NCBI GenBank assembly: GCA_020831465.1
Contig: JAFIGI010000012.1
Coordinates: forward strand, 2,073 to 66,072
Length of the DNA stretch: 64,000 nucleotides
Direction: 5' to 3'
Origin: Chlamydiales bacterium
Lineage (GTDB): Bacteria; Chlamydiota; Chlamydiia; Chlamydiales; JAAKFR01
The notes beneath the pieces were generated by a model that worked only from the letters and a program-made list of their open reading frames with translations, did no database searches and was not told the origin of the DNA. Numbering within the stretch: position 1 is the first letter of the stretch; every line of letters begins with the position of its first letter. Shown here piece by piece: positions 10,595 to 35,632 of this stretch. The translations under genes were made by a program, and so were the position numbers.

Positions 10595-10642
10595 ATAGCA
10601 GAATCAGTTGAAAATGTAAATTTTTCAACTGATTCTGCTATA
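10595..10642. repeat. palindromic intergenic repeat, copy 1 (short form)
   Basis: ATAGCAGAATCAGTTG is fused to the full right arm AAAATGTAAATTTTTCAACTGATTCTGCTATA. The element nearly fills the convergent brnQ/MOMP spacer and abuts the MOMP stop codon. Confidence 0.8.
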
Positions 10643-11503
10643 TTAGAAACGTAGCTGCATGTTGACATGAACCGCTTTTTCATCTCCCCAACGCCCCTCA
10701 ACTGTTGCACCAAGCCCTTCACAAAAGGTGATAGTCAGGCCTGCGGCATATCCCCAATACTTATTATTCCCCAGTTTGAAAAGTGTGGCTTGATCATCAT
10801 CGGGTCCTACAACAGCCTCGCGGAAATCTAATTGATTACCTGACCATTTCAGAGCAAGATAAGGAATAGCGGAAACTCCCGAACACCCAACCTGGAGCAA
10901 ATAGGAAGCTCCAATACCAACTTGCCACTCGGAATACCGCATATCGATCCGACCATCAGGGTATTCAATAAAGACCCCTTCAACCTGTGCGGTTTTAAGG
11001 CTGGGTTTAGTATAGAAATATTGACCTTCAATTCCGAAAAAGAAAGAGTTATAATCCCAGATAGTCAACCGACCGCCAATACTCCAAGAAAAATCTGTCT
11101 CACTAGCAAGTTGGATTTTCGAGTCTGCGATGAGTCCGAAAATTGCAGGATTCGCATATAGATCAATGTTTGTTGCTCCAAGAGTTGTAAAGAGGTCAAA
11201 TCGGTTGCAAATATTCAGTGCAAAATAAGCGGCATTTGTAAAGAGCATCGTCTCGTCAGCATCGGCATGATCTTCGACATCCAGTTCCATATGCCTGTTG
11301 AATACATAGTCTCCGTAAAACCCCACCCTAAAGCTCCATGCGTTGCACCAGTTGAAACAAGGATTGAATCGACTAGAGCTCACATCGCAATTTTCAAGAA
11401 GTACACCCTTACGGTATAAGCTTGCATCCATCGGATTTCCTATAGGAAGAGCGTAAAGGTTTGAAAATAAAAAAACAGATAGAATCAGTATCCATTTCTT
11501 CAT
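10643..11503 (-). CDS. MOMP-family (chlamydial major outer membrane protein-like) porin
   Basis: Signal peptide, then ALPIGNPMDASL...NPCFNWCNAWSFRVGFYGDYVFNR and C-terminal KAVHVNMQLRF. These parallel C. trachomatis MOMP LPVGNPAEPSL...[24 protein letters not shown]...AAHVNAQFRF, quoted from memory. Confidence 0.85.
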   Translation of the reverse strand: MKKWILILSVFLFSNLYALPIGNPMDASLYRKGVLLENCDVSSSRFNPCFNWCNAWSFRVGFYGDYVFNRHMELDVEDHADADETMLFTNAAYFALNICNRFDLFTTLGATNIDLYANPAIFGLIADSKIQLASETDFSWSIGGRLTIWDYNSFFFGIEGQYFYTKPSLKTAQVEGVFIEYPDGRIDMRYSEWQVGIGASYLLQVGCSGVSAIPYLALKWSGNQLDFREAVVGPDDDQATLFKLGNNKYWGYAAGLTITFCEGLGATVEGRWGDEKAVHVNMQLRF

Positions 11504-12173: not shown

Positions 12174-13865
12174 TTAGTAGACGTGTGTGGCTTCAGTATC
12201 GGTTACCGGAGCGCCCAACCCATCTGAGTTTAGGGTCGCTTCAGCCCTGGCATCTCCGACTGAGACCGCTCTAACGCGGACGCAGTACTCAACGCATTGC
12301 TTAGGATCAAGCCTTTGGATAGGCTCGAAAATAACCGTCTGTCCTGAAATTCTTCCTCTTGTAGGACCACTCACGCTTTCAGGCTGCAACTCATCTGTGA
12401 ACGTGATCTGCAGCTGAACGTTTGTATCTTCCGCGCTTCCGCGGTTAGAGATGCAAACTTTGTAGGATGTCATGTCATCTCCATCGAGACAGACCGGATC
12501 GCAAGTATCCACCATACACATATGTGTCGCCGGAATTCCTTTCCAGCATGTGACGGCTTCCGCGCATGTTACACACGGTCCACAGTCTGAATTGGTCGAC
12601 ACGGTTACCTTATTTGTCAAGCAGCCGGCAACTTGCGATTGCAGCGAGACATGGAATGTCTTGGTTTCGCCGGGGCAGAACTCAGGGATGCACCAGATTG
12701 CTCTGTTGCAGCAGATTTCAGCTCCCGGAGCATCAACTATGACGGTTCCGATTGGAGAGACGTCATCCACAACAACATCCCTTAAGACCAAATCACCCGG
12801 GTTTGTAACCGTAATCGTGTAGTCGACGGTCTTGCAGATGTAAGCCCAATCGGGGCCGGTTTTAGTAACTTCAACGCATGGCTCATTCACAAGCGTAGAC
12901 GCTTCTGCAGAGCATATAGGACCTCCGCAGTAAGTGACAGTCGCAACGTTAGTTACACATCCGCGCTTGGTTGCGCAAAAGTCAACATTGAAGCATCGGC
13001 TTTGACCGGGACACAAATCGCCCAACTGATAGGTAAGGCAAGTCATTCCGCTCGCATGAGAAAGGCCGTCCGGTACTTGGTCTTGGACGACAACATCATA
13101 AGCTGTTGCTGAACCGGAGTTGCATACTTCGATCCGGTAGGAAACCGGGCAATATAAGCACACGCACTCAGGACCGCACTTTCTGATACAGATTACAGGT
13201 TGGCCGCAGTTTGTGTAGGCGCAAATTTGCGGACATGCGCATACAGTAGCCGCAGTTGGACAGCAACCTTCTTTCATCGGACGCACCCAGACGCAGATTC
13301 TCTGGGACTCGCCGCAGTTCATGTGAGGGAATTCCCACTGAAGCGAGTTGTGCTGGTCAGGCTGTGCGGGTGGATCGCTTCTGATAAACTCAGAATCACC
13401 AGGCAGCGTTTGACGTACGATAATGTCTGCACATTCCTTTTGAGCAGTTATACTGATCTCAATAGGATAGGGCGAGCCGACTGTTGCGTACTCGGGTGCC
13501 CTTTGGCACAACTCGACGACACGATCGTCAGATGTTTGGTAGGCTCTCATATTTCCATAGCAACGCTCCCCGGGGAAGGGTTGCTCGCACTGGCCGCTTC
13601 CGCAAGGATAGTAACTAGGGTCGCATGGAAAATATATGTTATCTTCCGGGCCACTAAGCTGTGGACATGGAGCCGGACAATATGGTTCGCTAATAGGCGA
13701 CGGAGGGCAAGAGTCGTATCGTGGCGGACATGGGTCGCACGTCGGTGGACATTTTACTTCGCAAGGCGAGCAGAAACTATCGCACCAGTTACGATTACAA
13801 CTTGCCAAGCAAAACACGCTCATCAAAAAGAGAGCTGCTACAGCAGTTCGTAAGGGTTGAATCAT
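12174..13865 (-). CDS. omcB: 60-kDa cysteine-rich outer membrane complex protein OmcB
   Basis: 563 aa. Signal/lipobox FCLASC, a very Cys-rich N-terminus, then repeated DUF11-like beta modules (VTVTNPGD, VCNSGSATAYDVVV). OmcA-like genes lie upstream, as in Chlamydia. Confidence 0.9.
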   Translation of the reverse strand: MIQPLRTAVAALFLMSVFCLASCNRNWCDSFCSPCEVKCPPTCDPCPPRYDSCPPSPISEPYCPAPCPQLSGPEDNIYFPCDPSYYPCGSGQCEQPFPGERCYGNMRAYQTSDDRVVELCQRAPEYATVGSPYPIEISITAQKECADIIVRQTLPGDSEFIRSDPPAQPDQHNSLQWEFPHMNCGESQRICVWVRPMKEGCCPTAATVCACPQICAYTNCGQPVICIRKCGPECVCLYCPVSYRIEVCNSGSATAYDVVVQDQVPDGLSHASGMTCLTYQLGDLCPGQSRCFNVDFCATKRGCVTNVATVTYCGGPICSAEASTLVNEPCVEVTKTGPDWAYICKTVDYTITVTNPGDLVLRDVVVDDVSPIGTVIVDAPGAEICCNRAIWCIPEFCPGETKTFHVSLQSQVAGCLTNKVTVSTNSDCGPCVTCAEAVTCWKGIPATHMCMVDTCDPVCLDGDDMTSYKVCISNRGSAEDTNVQLQITFTDELQPESVSGPTRGRISGQTVIFEPIQRLDPKQCVEYCVRVRAVSVGDARAEATLNSDGLGAPVTDTEATHVY

Positions 13866-14084
13866 AGGAAACTCCTATAAGTTTGATTAGAGACTAACTT
13901 TTTCCCAACAGTGACCTGGTAGAAATGTTCACCTCGGATTTCAAGGCCGTTATCAGGCTTTGAACCCTGAACACTTTCTTTTCGACTCCTAGCCATTCAT
14001 TTTCTCCTACTTGTGGATTCAGGCCTGAGGGAAATCCCCTCAGCACCTGAATACATTTCTACCTGCGGTTGTGCCTCTTTTCGA

Positions 14085-14327
14085 TTACGGGCAAACCGGA
14101 CATCTTGGTGGGCACGCTGGCGGGCAAGCCGGTGGGCATGATGGCGGGCAATATTGCGCAGGTGGGCATGATGGCGGGCAAGCCGGTGGGCAAGCTGGTG
14201 GACATGCTGGTGGGCAATATTGCGGACAAGGTGGACATGCTGGCTGACAACATGGGTTGCAGCTTGCCAAGCTGAACATGCTCATTACAAATAGAGCGGC
14301 GAAAAACATTTTCAAAGACCGTTTCAT
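14085..14327 (-). CDS. omcA: OmcA-like small cysteine/proline-rich lipoprotein, copy 1
   Basis: Start at the ATG at 14327 (M26 of ORF 14085-14402), preceded by AAGGAG. MKRSLKMFFAALFVMSMFSLASC is a lipobox, followed by CPPA/CPPS repeats. Confidence 0.75.
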   Translation of the reverse strand: MKRSLKMFFAALFVMSMFSLASCNPCCQPACPPCPQYCPPACPPACPPACPPSCPPAQYCPPSCPPACPPACPPRCPVCP

Positions 14328-14851
14328 ATGAAACTCCTTAAGTTGATTTGAGTCTAGTTGTTTAATAAAATGCCCTCTTATACAAATCTGGGGGCTCTGC
14401 ACTCTTCGGTACAGTCCTTATGAATCTATTATCAAATGAAAACTAAAATTTTATCAAACTTTTTTATAATAAAACTTTCTAAAATCGCACTCTCTTTTTT
14501 GAATAGTTAGCTATCTTCATGTCATTCTCAAAGACTTATGTGCGCACTCTTCTTCTGTCGGAAAAAAATTACGATCCCCCTTTATGCAACCGTTCATTCC
14601 GTTCATTTCAGCAAATTTGAATTTCTAATCGCGAATCGTAGTCGATTATGTTTGAAATGATAGAAATTGGGCGCAAGATTTTGTTGAAGCAGGAAATGCG
14701 CAGAGCAAATCTAACCTCAATCCAGTTAGCGAGTTCGAGCACAATGTCCTAGATAAAAAGATACGGAGCAATCTTAGTCAGATTTATAAGAGTGTTTTGA
14801 AACTCATATTTTTAAATATGAGCAAGAAACGATTTTGTAAAGATGAGCGGT

Positions 14852-14950
14852 TATAGCAGCATCAGTTGAAAAATTTACATTTTGACGATCGGTCAAGCCC
14901 GGGAGCTTTGACGCGGTGAAAATGTAAATTTTTCAACTGATGCTGCTATA
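14852..14950. repeat. palindromic intergenic repeat, copy 2 (long form)
   Basis: Perfect 32-nt arms TATAGCAGCATCAGTTGAAAAATTTACATTTT (14852-14883) and the reverse complement (14919-14950) flank a 35-nt centre containing CCCGGG. Confidence 0.85.
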
Positions 14951-15048
14951 GATTAAGGGTATGAATCGACTATTAAAGAAAGAGCCTTGTGGAGTCAAAA
15001 AACCGATCTCCACAAGGCATATCTACCTGCGCTTATTCCAAGCACAAA

Positions 15049-15381
15049 TTACGGACAACGAGGCGGGCATCTTGGCGGACACTTAGGTGGACAAACCGGT
15101 GTGTATACTGGGCATCCTGGCTCGCATCGAGGGGTCGGAGAACATGGACCTGGACAAACAGGACAAGCTGGCGGACAATATTGCGGACAAGGTTCAGGGC
15201 ATGGGCAAGGTTCAGGACATGGACAAGGCGGACATGTAGGTGGACAGCAAGGATCGCACTTAGGTGGACATCTCCATCCACATGGATCGCAGAAGAAATT
15301 ATTCGATCTTCCACAGCTTGTTAAGCTAAACATGCTCATCACAAACAGAGCGGCGAAAAACATTTTCAAAGAACGTTTCAT
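15049..15381 (-). CDS. OmcA-like small cysteine/proline-rich lipoprotein, copy 2
   Basis: Start at the ATG at 15381 (M5 of ORF 15049-15393). The signal peptide MKRSLKMFFAALFVMSMFSLTSC is nearly identical to copy 1. The mature part is CPP/CPxP-rich (CPPKC, CPPTCPPCPCPEPCPCPEPC). Confidence 0.75.
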   Translation of the reverse strand: MKRSLKMFFAALFVMSMFSLTSCGRSNNFFCDPCGWRCPPKCDPCCPPTCPPCPCPEPCPCPEPCPQYCPPACPVCPGPCSPTPRCEPGCPVYTPVCPPKCPPRCPPRCP

Positions 15382-15552
15382 ATGAAACTCCATTGGGTTG
15401 ATTAGAGTCTTAAAATGCCCCCTTATTATTCCTTTTGGAGAATCTGGATCCTTCAGGTGACATTCCTTATAAATTTATTATCAAACGAACAAAAAATTTT
15501 ATCAAACTTTATTTACAACAACCCATTTAAACAATTTTTCTATCTATAAAAG

Positions 15553-15645
15553 CAAGTAACTTGCAAACCTGTTCCTTAGGCTGTGTTGAAAAACTTAGGA
15601 TGTTCAGATTCAGTCAGATTTGGTTTTCAACACAGCTGTTACTTG
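15553..15645. repeat. degenerate palindrome in the omcA2/murA divergent spacer
   Basis: Inner arms GCTGTGTTGAAAA (15580-15592) and TTTTCAACACAGC (15624-15636). Outer arms CAAGTAAC (15553-15560) and GTTACTTG (15638-15645). It shares the GTTGAAAA core with the TATAGCAG repeat family. Confidence 0.5.
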
Positions 15646-15757: not shown

Positions 15758-17158
15758 ATGGATGTACTCCAAGTGAATGGAAATGGGAAACTTAAGGGAG
15801 AGGTAAAAGCTGCCGGGGCAAAAAATGCGATGACAAAGCTGCTCGTGGCGTCGCTTTTATCCGATAAGAAATGCGTTTTTTACAATGTTCCCGATATAGG
15901 AGACGTTCACATCACCGTTAACTTGTGCAAAGAGATCGGCGCTGATGTTCAATGGGATCGAGAAAAGGGGGTTATAGAAATTATCACTAAAGAGCTGAAA
16001 ACGACTTACATTCCTCAACGCTTTTCCGGTGCGAACCGCATTCCCATCTTGATGGCGGGCGCCCTTTTAGGTAGAACCGACGAAGATATCATCATTCCGA
16101 CCGTCGGAGGGGATGCAATCGGGAAGCGGTCAATCGATTTTCATGTTTCAGCTCTGACGCAGCTAGGCGCCTCGGTTGAATACCGCGAGATGAAAAAGGA
16201 AGGAGCTTATCTCGCTCACGCCCATAACGGATTGACAGGAAACCATATCCAGCTTCCTTACCCATCGGTGGGCGCAACCGAAAACGCCATTCTGGCAGGG
16301 GTTCGGGCAAAAGGGAATACCGTAATCAAAAACGCAGCTATTGAACCGGAAATTGTTGATCTTATTCTATTTCTCCAAAAACTCGGTGCGAATATTTCGA
16401 TCGACGTCGACCGCACGATCCATATCGAGGGAACTAAAACTTCGCATGAGGTCGAACATACAGTCATGTCCGACAGGATCGAAGCAGCCTCCTTCGGGAT
16501 GGCAGCTATTGCGACAAAGGGGAGTGTCTTTGTGCAAGGGGCGCAGCATCTGCACATGATCACCTTTTTAAACAAGCTGCGCGAGCTTGGCGGAGGGTTT
16601 GTCATCAAAAGCGACGGAATCGAGTTTTTCTATCAAGGTCCTCTTGTGGGGGGCATCCATGTAGAGACCGATGTCCACCCCGGATTTATGACCGACTGGC
16701 AGCAGCCCTATGCGATCCTCTTGACTCAGGCGCAAGGAATCTCTGTTATCCATGAGACCGTTTATGAAAATCGATTCGGCTACACCCAAACGCTCAAAAA
16801 GATGGGGGCAGAGATCGATCTCTTCAAACAATGCCTTGGCAACAAACCCTGTCGGTATGCGATGAGAAGCTACGAGCACAGCATCATCGTTCGAGGCAGT
16901 ACCCCCTTGCAGGGCTGCGAGATCACGATTCCCGACCTACGCGCCGGGTTTGCATACGTCATGGCTGCTCTGATCGCATCGGGAGAAAGCACGATCAACG
17001 GGATGCGCTTTCTCGATCGCGGTTATGAAAATCTAGTGGCGAAACTCCAAAAACTTGGCGCAAATATCAACCGTGTCCAGACACAACCCGATACCAAACC
17101 CCTCAACCCCATCCTTCCCGCGCCGAAAGCCCCTAGAAAAAATAAGCTGACCGTATGA
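15758..17158 (+). CDS. murA: UDP-N-acetylglucosamine 1-carboxyvinyltransferase
   Basis: 466 aa. AAGAKNAMTKLLVASLL and the active-site loop PTVGGDAIGKRSIDFH, with Asp at the position of E. coli Cys115. Confidence 0.93.
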   Translation: MDVLQVNGNGKLKGEVKAAGAKNAMTKLLVASLLSDKKCVFYNVPDIGDVHITVNLCKEIGADVQWDREKGVIEIITKELKTTYIPQRFSGANRIPILMAGALLGRTDEDIIIPTVGGDAIGKRSIDFHVSALTQLGASVEYREMKKEGAYLAHAHNGLTGNHIQLPYPSVGATENAILAGVRAKGNTVIKNAAIEPEIVDLILFLQKLGANISIDVDRTIHIEGTKTSHEVEHTVMSDRIEAASFGMAAIATKGSVFVQGAQHLHMITFLNKLRELGGGFVIKSDGIEFFYQGPLVGGIHVETDVHPGFMTDWQQPYAILLTQAQGISVIHETVYENRFGYTQTLKKMGAEIDLFKQCLGNKPCRYAMRSYEHSIIVRGSTPLQGCEITIPDLRAGFAYVMAALIASGESTINGMRFLDRGYENLVAKLQKLGANINRVQTQPDTKPLNPILPAPKAPRKNKLTV

Positions 17159-35558: not shown

Positions 35559-35632
35559 TATAGCAGAATGAGTTGAAAAATTTACCTTTTCACGCAGGTC
35601 AAAATGTAAATTTTTCAACTCATTCTGCTATA
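35559..35632. repeat. palindromic intergenic repeat, copy 3
   Basis: Arms TATAGCAGAATGAGTTGAAAAATTTACCTTTT (35559-35590) and AAAATGTAAATTTTTCAACTCATTCTGCTATA (35601-35632). It starts immediately after the recJ stop codon. Confidence 0.85.

Follow-up and report, generated by a model that had tools for sequence, protein, structure and literature searches.

The stretch of DNA analysed here (the window, 64,000 nucleotides, positions 2,073 to 66,072 of contig JAFIGI010000012.1, GenBank assembly GCA_020831465.1) is taken from the metagenome-assembled genome (MAG) of an uncultured environmental chlamydia of the order Chlamydiales, and carries two small genes for cysteine-rich lipoproteins between murA and omcB (Table 1). 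Copy 1 is located directly upstream of omcB in the same orientation, with 219 nt between its end and omcB, and copy 2 lies on the murA side. The omcB product matches PF03504 (Chlam_OMP6, E 5.9e-28) and PF01345 (DUF11, E 5.5e-27) in Pfam, and an identical protein, again from a MAG, is found at NCBI as 'OmcB family cysteine-rich outer membrane protein [Chlamydiales bacterium]' (MCC5831650.1). With the ATG that is preceded by GGAG chosen as the start codon of each small gene, the copy 1 product consists of the signal peptide MKRSLKMFFAALFVMSMFSLASC and the mature part CNPCCQPACPPCPQYCPPACPPACPPACPPSCPPAQYCPPSCPPACPPACPPRCPVCP, and the copy 2 product of MKRSLKMFFAALFVMSMFSLTSC and GRSNNFFCDPCGWRCPPKCDPCCPPTCPPCPCPEPCPCPEPCPQYC...CPPKCPPRCPPRCP. 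An initial annotation, made from the DNA letters alone, had described two minus-strand genes with near-identical lipoprotein signal peptides upstream of omcB, and the open reading frames (ORFs) were indeed found where it had placed them. It had also taken the minus strand to be the coding one, which agrees with the signal peptide, ribosome-binding site (RBS), promoter and synteny that are conserved across species. Opposite-strand ORFs at 14071-14247 and 14987-15385, which would encode GGH/GGQ-rich products, are mirror images of the Cys-Pro frame and were rejected, since the conserved signal peptide, RBS and promoter are present only in the minus frame and substitutions are mostly synonymous.

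Table 1. Features of the murA-omcB region and its surroundings; positions refer to the window.
Feature	Position	Strand	Basis or remark
MOMP-like porin gene, 286 aa, 6 Cys	10643-11503	-	Pfam Chlam_OMP, E 3e-38
omcB, 563 aa	12174-13865	-	Chlam_OMP6 and DUF11 repeats
OmcB residues 1-71 (same in L001-L029)	13653-13865	-	third copy of the N-terminal module
Copy 1-omcB intergenic region	13866-14084	-	orthologous to the omcA-like/omcB spacer of relatives (alignment)
Conserved 15-bp hairpin without U tail	14017-14052	-	in the copy 1-omcB spacer; window and L001 versions folded
Copy 1, OmcA-like lipoprotein gene	14085-14327	-	80 aa; ORF and translation
CPP[A/S] tetrapeptide array of copy 1	14106-14230	-	12-nt periodicity and 66-nt higher-order repeat (82% identical)
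Promoter-like site of copy 1 (TTGATA-18-GATAAT, 14428-14457), followed by a ~100-nt leader that contains two hairpins and an AAGGAG RBS	14328-14457	-	promoter scan
Spacer between the duplicated units (~550 bp)	14466-14974	.	no counterpart in related loci save the palindrome (blastn against all loci)
Long palindrome	14852-14950	.	35-nt arms, 97% complementary; fold -55.6 kcal/mol, z = -14
Hairpin resembling an intrinsic terminator, downstream of copy 2 (GCCUUGUGGAG...CUCCACAAGGC, then CUCUUUCUUU)	14975-15018	-	RNA fold -33 kcal/mol, z = -5.6
Copy 2, gene for an OmcA-like lipoprotein rich in Cys and Pro	15049-15381	-	110 aa; ORF and translation
18-nt tandem unit in copy 2, encoding CPCPEP	15185-15228	-	2.4 copies, 88% matches, score 74 (Tandem Repeats Finder)
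Promoter-like site of copy 2 (TTGATA-17-GATAAT, 15477-15505), followed by a ~95-nt leader that contains a GGAG RBS	15382-15505	-	promoter scan
murA	15758-17158	+	
Heavy-metal-type P-type ATPase gene	18094-20202		~3 kb from the small genes; also in L002

Both signal peptides follow the pattern MKRSLKMFFAALFVMSMFSL(A/T)SC, with a basic n-region ahead of a hydrophobic core and a lipobox: the MKRSLK start is followed by a 13-residue hydrophobic core and by L-A-S-C in copy 1 or L-T-S-C in copy 2, the export signal and the signal peptidase II lipobox being assigned by motif only. The two differ by a single residue (A/T), and their DNA is identical at 62 of 69 positions (90%), as had been estimated by eye in the initial annotation. 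Six of the seven nucleotide differences are synonymous, and identity reaches 92% over a 78-nt block that includes the RBS. The mature parts are very rich in cysteine and proline. The 58 mature residues of copy 1 contain 28% Cys and 43% Pro, with a Cys-to-Cys spacing of four in 10 of 15 intervals, and the 88 mature residues of copy 2 contain 26% Cys and 36% Pro, with this spacing in 12 of 22 intervals. Copy 2 has the order lipobox, FFCDPCGW motif, Cys-X3 array, core SPTPRCEPGCPVYTPVC and tail CPPKCPPRCPPRCP, and can be aligned over its full length with orthologues from 23 loci. Copy 1 has neither the DCFCDPCGW motif nor the TPRCEPGCPxYTP core; 18 residues after the lipobox are gone and CPP[A/S] units fill the middle of the protein. 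According to the blastn segments, CNPCCQPACPPCP of copy 1 corresponds to CDPCCPPTCPPCP of copy 2. AlphaFold models of both proteins contain a signal-peptide helix only and no regular structure in the mature part (pLDDT, the model confidence score, 47-59), and the mature parts are thus predicted to be non-globular.

To place the two genes in a wider family, we used 28 related loci with a complete gene, namely L002 and L003, 21 loci from Chlamydiota MAGs found by an OmcB-guided scan of species-representative genomes, and five metagenome loci. A database search with copy 2 yielded five relatives only (P0003-P0007). In all 28 loci, an ORF scan placed a gene for a small cysteine-rich lipoprotein directly upstream of omcB; in L002 and L003, a single small gene is located between murA and omcB. 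The gene is single-copy in 27 of the 28 loci, so that the tandem paralogues next to omcB, which the initial annotation had recognized as such, depart from the rule. L018 is the remaining locus, with two tandem copies that have their own derived motif in common (CNRCCDQGCGPCG), and one of these copies is short and without the core. This duplication is independent of, and parallel to, the one in the window. Members of the family have a signal peptide, the motif C-N-R-W-x-D-C-F-C-D-P-C-G-W, a Cys-X3 array, a conserved core with the consensus C-x-P-T-P-R-C-E-P-G-C-P-x-Y-T-P, a second array and a CPPKCPPRC tail, in this order. The Cys-X3 unit itself changes by species, with examples such as CAPK, CGPS, CPQP, CDPCGYS and, in L009, 18 units of CEPR. 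The L009 gene (L009:3405-3845) has these CEPR units in one consecutive run, in which exact DNA repeats reach 40 nt or more, L022 has CDPCGYS four times, and L023 is also among the relatives with extreme arrays; the units of L008 and L027 (CCQPN/CCPQP) resemble mammalian high-sulfur keratin-associated proteins. The closest relative of the window is L001, with an OmcB that is 88% identical. Its contig ends inside the small gene, and the gene adjoining omcB has a C-terminus of the full type.

The relation of the family to the OmcA proteins of Chlamydia was assessed at the profile level. Neither window protein matches the Pfam family Chlam_OMP3 (PF03503) at E <= 1, nor do 25 family members at E <= 10, and an NCBIfam scan of the two proteins and 25 relatives gave no OmcA-family match, whereas PF03503 is found in 13 of the 13 canonical Chlamydia OmcA proteins that were retrieved. 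Weak Pfam matches of family members to C_tripleX and LELP1 reflect composition. Using hhalign, the family matches canonical OmcA with a probability of 95.6% (E 1e-8), over the first ~40 columns, which comprise the signal peptide and the motif CxRxxDCxFxDPC. The canonical post-lipobox motif CCRIVDCCFEDPC aligns here with the family motif C-N-R-W-x-D-C-F-C-D-P-C-G-W, of which copy 2 keeps FFCDPCGW only. A stronger match, of 99.0% (E 5e-18), was obtained between the small-protein family and the N-terminus of OmcB. In the window, the OmcB N-terminus contains a lipoprotein signal peptide, followed by CNRNWCDSFCSPC and a CPP-rich stretch, and across the clade it is composed of a lipoprotein signal peptide, CNRNWCDxFCSPC and a CPP/CEPR-rich array. 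Canonical Chlamydia OmcB is not known to have such an N-terminus. Moreover, the translation-initiation region of omcB (CTCTAATCAA..AGGAGTTTCCTATG) resembles that of the small genes. Based on these sequence profiles, we regard the family as homologous to OmcA, though divergent, in its N-terminal part, to which a repeat body specific to the lineage is joined.

The similarity between the two copies is confined to two blocks in blastn. The first, 78% identical, begins ~140 nt before the gene start and continues through the signal peptide (14465-14260 versus 15513-15314), and the second, which is 64% identical, runs from the middle of the gene to ~30 nt beyond the stop codon. The near-identity of the signal-peptide DNA had been read in the initial annotation as a sign of recent duplication or gene conversion. 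This does not hold up against the orthologues, as the signal-peptide DNA is no closer between the copies (90%, third codon positions 74%) than to genes of other species: either copy is 80-94% identical to the other-species orthologues (third codon positions 57-83%), and 91% identical to L005 or L006 (third codon positions 74-78%). Over omcB, the window and L005 or L006 are only 74-75% identical, with ~45% at third codon positions (ungapped comparisons, from which L011, L025 and L014 were left out because of indels). The signal-peptide DNA is evidently under nucleotide-level constraint across the clade, judging from these alignments, and the similarity between the copies in this part is therefore uninformative on the age of the duplication. 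Nor do the promoter and leader speak for a recent event, being only 70% identical between the copies, whereas the copy 1 leader is 81-87% identical to orthologues of most nearer species (L004, L005, L006, L011, L025 and L028). The copy 2 leader has diverged, with ~70% identity to copy 1 as well as to the orthologues, and the 3' flank of copy 1 corresponds to the orthologous omcA-omcB spacer of relatives. By these alignments, the regulatory region of copy 1 appears to be of the ancestral type. Both copies have the peptide PCPQYCPPACP, which is absent from all orthologues and points to a lineage-specific origin of the duplication, and the full-type C-terminus next to omcB in L001 indicates that the remodelling of copy 1 is probably younger than the split from L001.

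We propose from the alignments that a segment from the promoter to ~30 nt past the stop codon was duplicated, after which the two copies would have exchanged roles. Copy 2, on the murA side, would have kept the ancestral coding architecture while its leader diverged and it acquired a terminator of its own. Copy 1, at the ancestral position, would have kept the ancestral promoter, leader and omcB-proximal flank, and its coding region would have been remodelled by loss of the DCFCDPCGW motif behind the lipobox and of the TPRCEPGCPxYTP core, and by multiplication of CPP[A/S] units.

The initial annotation had also drawn attention to 12-nt tandem repeats in copy 1 and considered them prone to length change. 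The period was confirmed using Tandem Repeats Finder, which reported 8.8 copies of period 12 at 14106-14217 (65% matches) and a period of 24 at 14107-14230 (76% matches), and the lag-12 autocorrelation of copy 1 (0.57) is the second highest among 27 family genes. The description has to be corrected in one point, as the repeats are imperfect in their DNA: the array units in the window are only 65-76% alike in DNA, synonymous codons differ between units, and long near-perfect tandem repeats were not found in the window arrays, where the longest exact direct repeat measures 21 nt. That the Cys and Pro positions are kept across units with differing synonymous codons points to selection acting on the peptide rather than to a newly arisen microsatellite. 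Accordingly, the window arrays look to us like evolving arrays under selection on the peptide, as opposed to a hypermutable tract. The search of related Chlamydiae for CPPA-repeat lipoproteins, which had been suggested in the same annotation, brought up no CPP[A/S] array in the 28 related loci or in any database match.

Length change can be observed among the relatives. The small genes of L008 and L027 are 97% identical, and the indels between them (3, 12, 9 and 3 nt) are all in frame and within the array. Their omcB genes, 98% identical, differ by one 24-nt indel that corresponds to two CEPR units. Differences of 6 and 12 nt are present between the small genes of L002 and L010, the OmcB N-terminus of L001 has 10 residues more than that of the window, and exact internal repeats of 20-40 nt are found in several family members. 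The repeat number of orthologues is hence not invariant, although L005 and L006, which are 93% identical, have no indel. A same-species sequence covering the window arrays was not found, and the five loci from the metagenome scan all belong to other species. Altogether, the sequence comparisons support a change in length of the Cys-X3 arrays at the family level, so that the earlier expectation is borne out in relatives (L008/L027, L002/L010 and omcB of L001); the array units of the window itself are imperfect in DNA.

A sigma-70-like promoter and an RBS are conserved at both copies in the cross-species alignment. Throughout L002-L029, the promoter (AAAAAAGTTTGATAAAATTTT...TTTGATAAT, both hexamer regions of which contain TTTGATAA) and the ~95-nt leader are conserved far above the level of coding DNA. 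The leader contains the hairpin CTGTAC/GTACAG ~12 nt after the -10 element, followed by GCCCC/GGGGC, and other hairpin sequences are found at the same site in L018 (GCATC/GATGC), L003 (GCACT/AGTGC) and L022 (CTCTATC/GATAGAG). By manual count, the first hairpin is 90% paired over 27 sequences, with weak covariation; RNAalifold predicted no structure for the leaders, the second hairpin being misaligned in the input. Judging by sequence, the leader may be an mRNA-stabilising 5' stem-loop or a binding site for a late-gene regulator, both being candidates. The terminator-like hairpin with its U tail after copy 2 implies that copy 2 would be its own transcription unit. For copy 1, the ancestral promoter and the downstream hairpin without U tail suggest partial co-transcription with omcB. 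Thus, copy 1 is probably in part co-transcribed with omcB and copy 2 monocistronic.

The spacer upstream of omcB also contains a 44-codon ORF (MARSRKESVQGSKPDNGLEIRGEHFYQVTVGKKLVSNQTYRSFL; window 13862-13996, minus strand; L001:251-385), which overlaps the start of omcB and differs between the two by two substitutions. It is called as a gene on the L001 contig, and the whole spacer is highly conserved in DNA in eight species. The region may simply be the omcB leader and not coding. Long A/T-rich palindromes (TATAGCAGNATNAGTTGAAAAATTTACATTTT and its complement) are dispersed over the window (14852-14950, 10595-10642 and 35559-35632) and also occur at L029:5304-5344. The first lies ~100 nt after the copy 2 stop, beyond the terminator-like hairpin; the second starts right after the stop of the gene for a porin similar to MOMP (major outer membrane protein), the third follows directly on a stop between convergent genes, and the L029 element follows omcB. 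From its placement and sequence, the palindrome is probably a terminator or an element of the repetitive extragenic palindromic (REP) type. Sub-threshold matches of the long palindrome to Rfam miRNA models were rejected as generic hairpin matches. A further inverted repeat with a similar GTTGAAAA/TTTTCAAC core (GCTGTGTTGAAAA ... TTTTTCAACACAGC) is located at 15584-15632, between the murA start and the copy 2 promoter. The MOMP-like porin gene itself is found two genes downstream of omcB, after ispF, and the L001 contig has two such genes (L001:2804-4601).

Taken together, we think it likely that both genes encode a divergent lipoprotein of the OmcA type and are tandem paralogues, duplicated and remodelled in the way outlined above, and that their products are disulfide cross-linkers of the outer-membrane complex. 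By analogy with Chlamydia OmcA and the P. amoebophila protein pc0617, a function as periplasmic, lipid-anchored cross-linkers is likely. Both products would be exported, lipid-modified at the lipobox cysteine and anchored in the outer membrane facing the periplasm, where the proline-stiffened, non-globular chains would present a cysteine at about every fourth residue. During the infectious stage, intermolecular disulfides could then be formed with OmcB, which has the same N-terminal module, and with cysteine-containing porins, and the envelope would be stiffened; the MOMP-like porins are likely partners in such a cross-linked envelope. Over evolutionary time, the Cys-X3 arrays would gain and lose units in frame, which would change the number of cross-linking sites.

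Several points weigh against this proposal. Both proteins and 25 family members are without a match to the Pfam Chlam_OMP3 or NCBIfam models, even at E <= 10, and the hhalign match to OmcA covers only ~40 N-terminal columns, half of which are signal peptide, while copy 1 does not have the post-lipobox motif at all. The cross-linker role in this organism is read from sequence. The tandem arrangement is that of a MAG assembly, and copy 1 could be drifting under relaxed constraint. Carried to its end, this last point makes copy 1 a decaying or functionless duplicate, a low-complexity remnant that drifts by repeat expansion. Such a remnant would explain why copy 1 is devoid of DCFCDPCGW and TPRCEPGCPxYTP, which most orthologues keep, and why its CPP[A/S] array is seen in none of the 28 related loci or database matches; the other duplicated locus, L018, also has one short, core-less copy. 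However, the ORF, lipobox, RBS and promoter of copy 1 are intact and its leader is closer to that of the orthologues named above (81-87%) than the leader of copy 2 is. The differences in the signal peptide are nearly all synonymous, Cys and Pro are held across units despite synonymous codon changes, and copy 1 fills the ancestral slot directly upstream of omcB. We therefore consider a decaying copy 1 to be unlikely. A metagenomic source raises the further question of whether two strain variants of one locus were joined in series during assembly, and the break of the L001 contig inside the repeat gene indicates that such arrays do disturb assembly. Strain variants would share their flanks, whereas coding sequence, leader (70% identical) and 3' flank are strongly different in the two copies; moreover, ~550 bp of unique sequence lie between them, each comes with a promoter and a terminator or hairpin of its own, and the independent MAG with L018 is also two-copy, which together make an artefact the least credible of the explanations considered here and extremely improbable.

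Alternatively, in line with the stronger reading of the initial annotation, the arrays might act as a fast contingency-type switch, in which slipped-strand mispairing varies the unit number within populations and tunes cross-linking or antigenicity. The in-frame differences in array length at 97-98% DNA identity, both in the small gene and in omcB, would fit such a switch, as would the exact internal repeats of 20-40 nt in several members and the wholly different unit types between species (CAPK, CEPR x18, CGPS, CDPCGYS). Yet the window units are only 65-76% alike with a longest exact repeat of 21 nt, L005 and L006 have no indel at 93% identity, and as the repeat periods are multiples of three, on/off frameshifting is impossible; we regard a rapid switch as quite unlikely. 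Lastly, one might speculate that the proteins are periplasmic, metallothionein-like metal-binding lipoproteins and not structural cross-linkers, in view of their very high cysteine content and of the gene for a heavy-metal-type P-type ATPase ~3 kb away, which is also present in L002. This ATPase gene is separated from the small genes by murA and a radical-SAM gene on other strands, neither Pfam nor NCBIfam gave a match to a metallothionein or metal-binding family for the window proteins and 25 relatives, and the proline-rich Cys-X3 spacing is atypical of CxC/CxxC metal clusters. With, in addition, the tight linkage to omcB across the 28 related loci and the N-terminal module in common with OmcB, a role in metal binding seems very unlikely.

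Going beyond the proposal of cross-linking OmcA-type paralogues, one might speculate that OmcA has been rebuilt in this clade as a modular 'disulfide zipper', composed of a conserved export and anchor module, which is also present on OmcB, and of fast-evolving Cys-X3 arrays. Unit type and number would turn over even between near-identical strains, a core-less paralogue would have arisen by duplication twice independently (in the window and in L018), and the paralogue in the window would be an almost pure (CPPA)n rod, with the ancestral omcA-omcB promoter directing its expression. We put this forward tentatively and rather doubt that it holds. If array length sets the cross-link density or the rigidity of the elementary body, the arrays would serve as a structural element open to tuning and would be driven by a conserved and structured mRNA leader, which has hitherto not been described.

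OmcA and OmcB are hallmark cross-linked envelope proteins of chlamydiae. The genes described here are almost invisible to annotation, and they are therefore likely to be underrepresented in inventories of the envelope of environmental chlamydiae. The family gave 14 matches among 5.8 billion proteins of a protein collection, and a profile search of 1.84 billion representatives gave 14 as well; none of these is named. Of the 14 representatives, P0031 (971 aa) is a hydrophobic repeat protein without relation to the family, and three belong to other secreted proteins of the CKPKCEP type. The two window proteins were absent from the protein collection in an exact look-up with six start choices, in which the OmcB of the same MAG is present. 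The profile-level evidence indicates that positional OmcA analogues have an N-terminal module in common with true OmcA and, in this clade, with OmcB too, and that the remainder of the protein is a fast-evolving Cys-X3 repeat array. While environmental chlamydiae were already known to have OmcA/OmcB analogues and extended Omc families, the architecture of the OmcA-like proteins of this clade, the profile links to OmcA and to the OmcB N-terminus, the evidence for array turnover between near-identical strains and the 'role-swapped' duplication are new.

The nearest known system is the outer membrane complex of Chlamydia, in which OmcA, proven to be a lipoprotein, and OmcB are cross-linked by disulfides (PMC1403754, PMC2811131). 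Similar to canonical OmcA, the window proteins are small and high in cysteine, have a lipoprotein signal peptide and are encoded directly upstream of omcB in the same orientation. The post-lipobox motif C-x-R-x-x-D-C-x-F-x-D-P-C is related to that of the family, of which copy 2 keeps a part and copy 1 nothing, and by analogy a role as disulfide cross-linker of the outer membrane complex is presumed for both. They differ in composition: canonical OmcA contains no CPP, 17-20% Cys and 10% Pro, in agreement with the initial annotation, which had described it as a single-copy protein and not a CPP polymer, and the window proteins have Cys-X3 arrays with 26-28% Cys and 36-43% Pro. The core TPRCEPGCPxYTP and the tail CPPKCPPRC are features of the clade proteins and not of canonical OmcA, and the gene is duplicated in the window. 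Outside the Chlamydiaceae, 'OmcA' has so far been assigned by position and cysteine content only; the 'OmcA' of P. amoebophila was annotated by its cysteine-richness and its position upstream of omcB, without BLAST similarity to OmcA of the Chlamydiaceae (PMC1403754). Its pc0617 and pc0616 proteins were found in outer-membrane fractions (PMC3561449), and an 'extended omc family' with similar N-termini has been described in Waddlia (chondrophila) and Protochlamydia (PMC2878342). These positional OmcA analogues of environmental chlamydiae were set beside the window genes by description only, and the cited literature on pc0617 and the extended omc family contains no description of tetrapeptide Cys-Pro arrays, of length variation between strains or of an OmcA-like module on OmcB. 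We therefore see the biology of the two genes as an extension of a known system and not as a new system. A more distant parallel is offered by eukaryotic proteins. The high-sulfur keratin-associated proteins, the late cornified envelope and small proline-rich (SPRR) proteins and the IgG hinge (CPPCP) are also short, proline-stiffened, cysteine-periodic and non-globular, and are cross-linked by intermolecular disulfides. They are not homologous to the bacterial proteins, which are lipid-anchored and periplasmic, and the resemblance reflects a convergent low-complexity composition.

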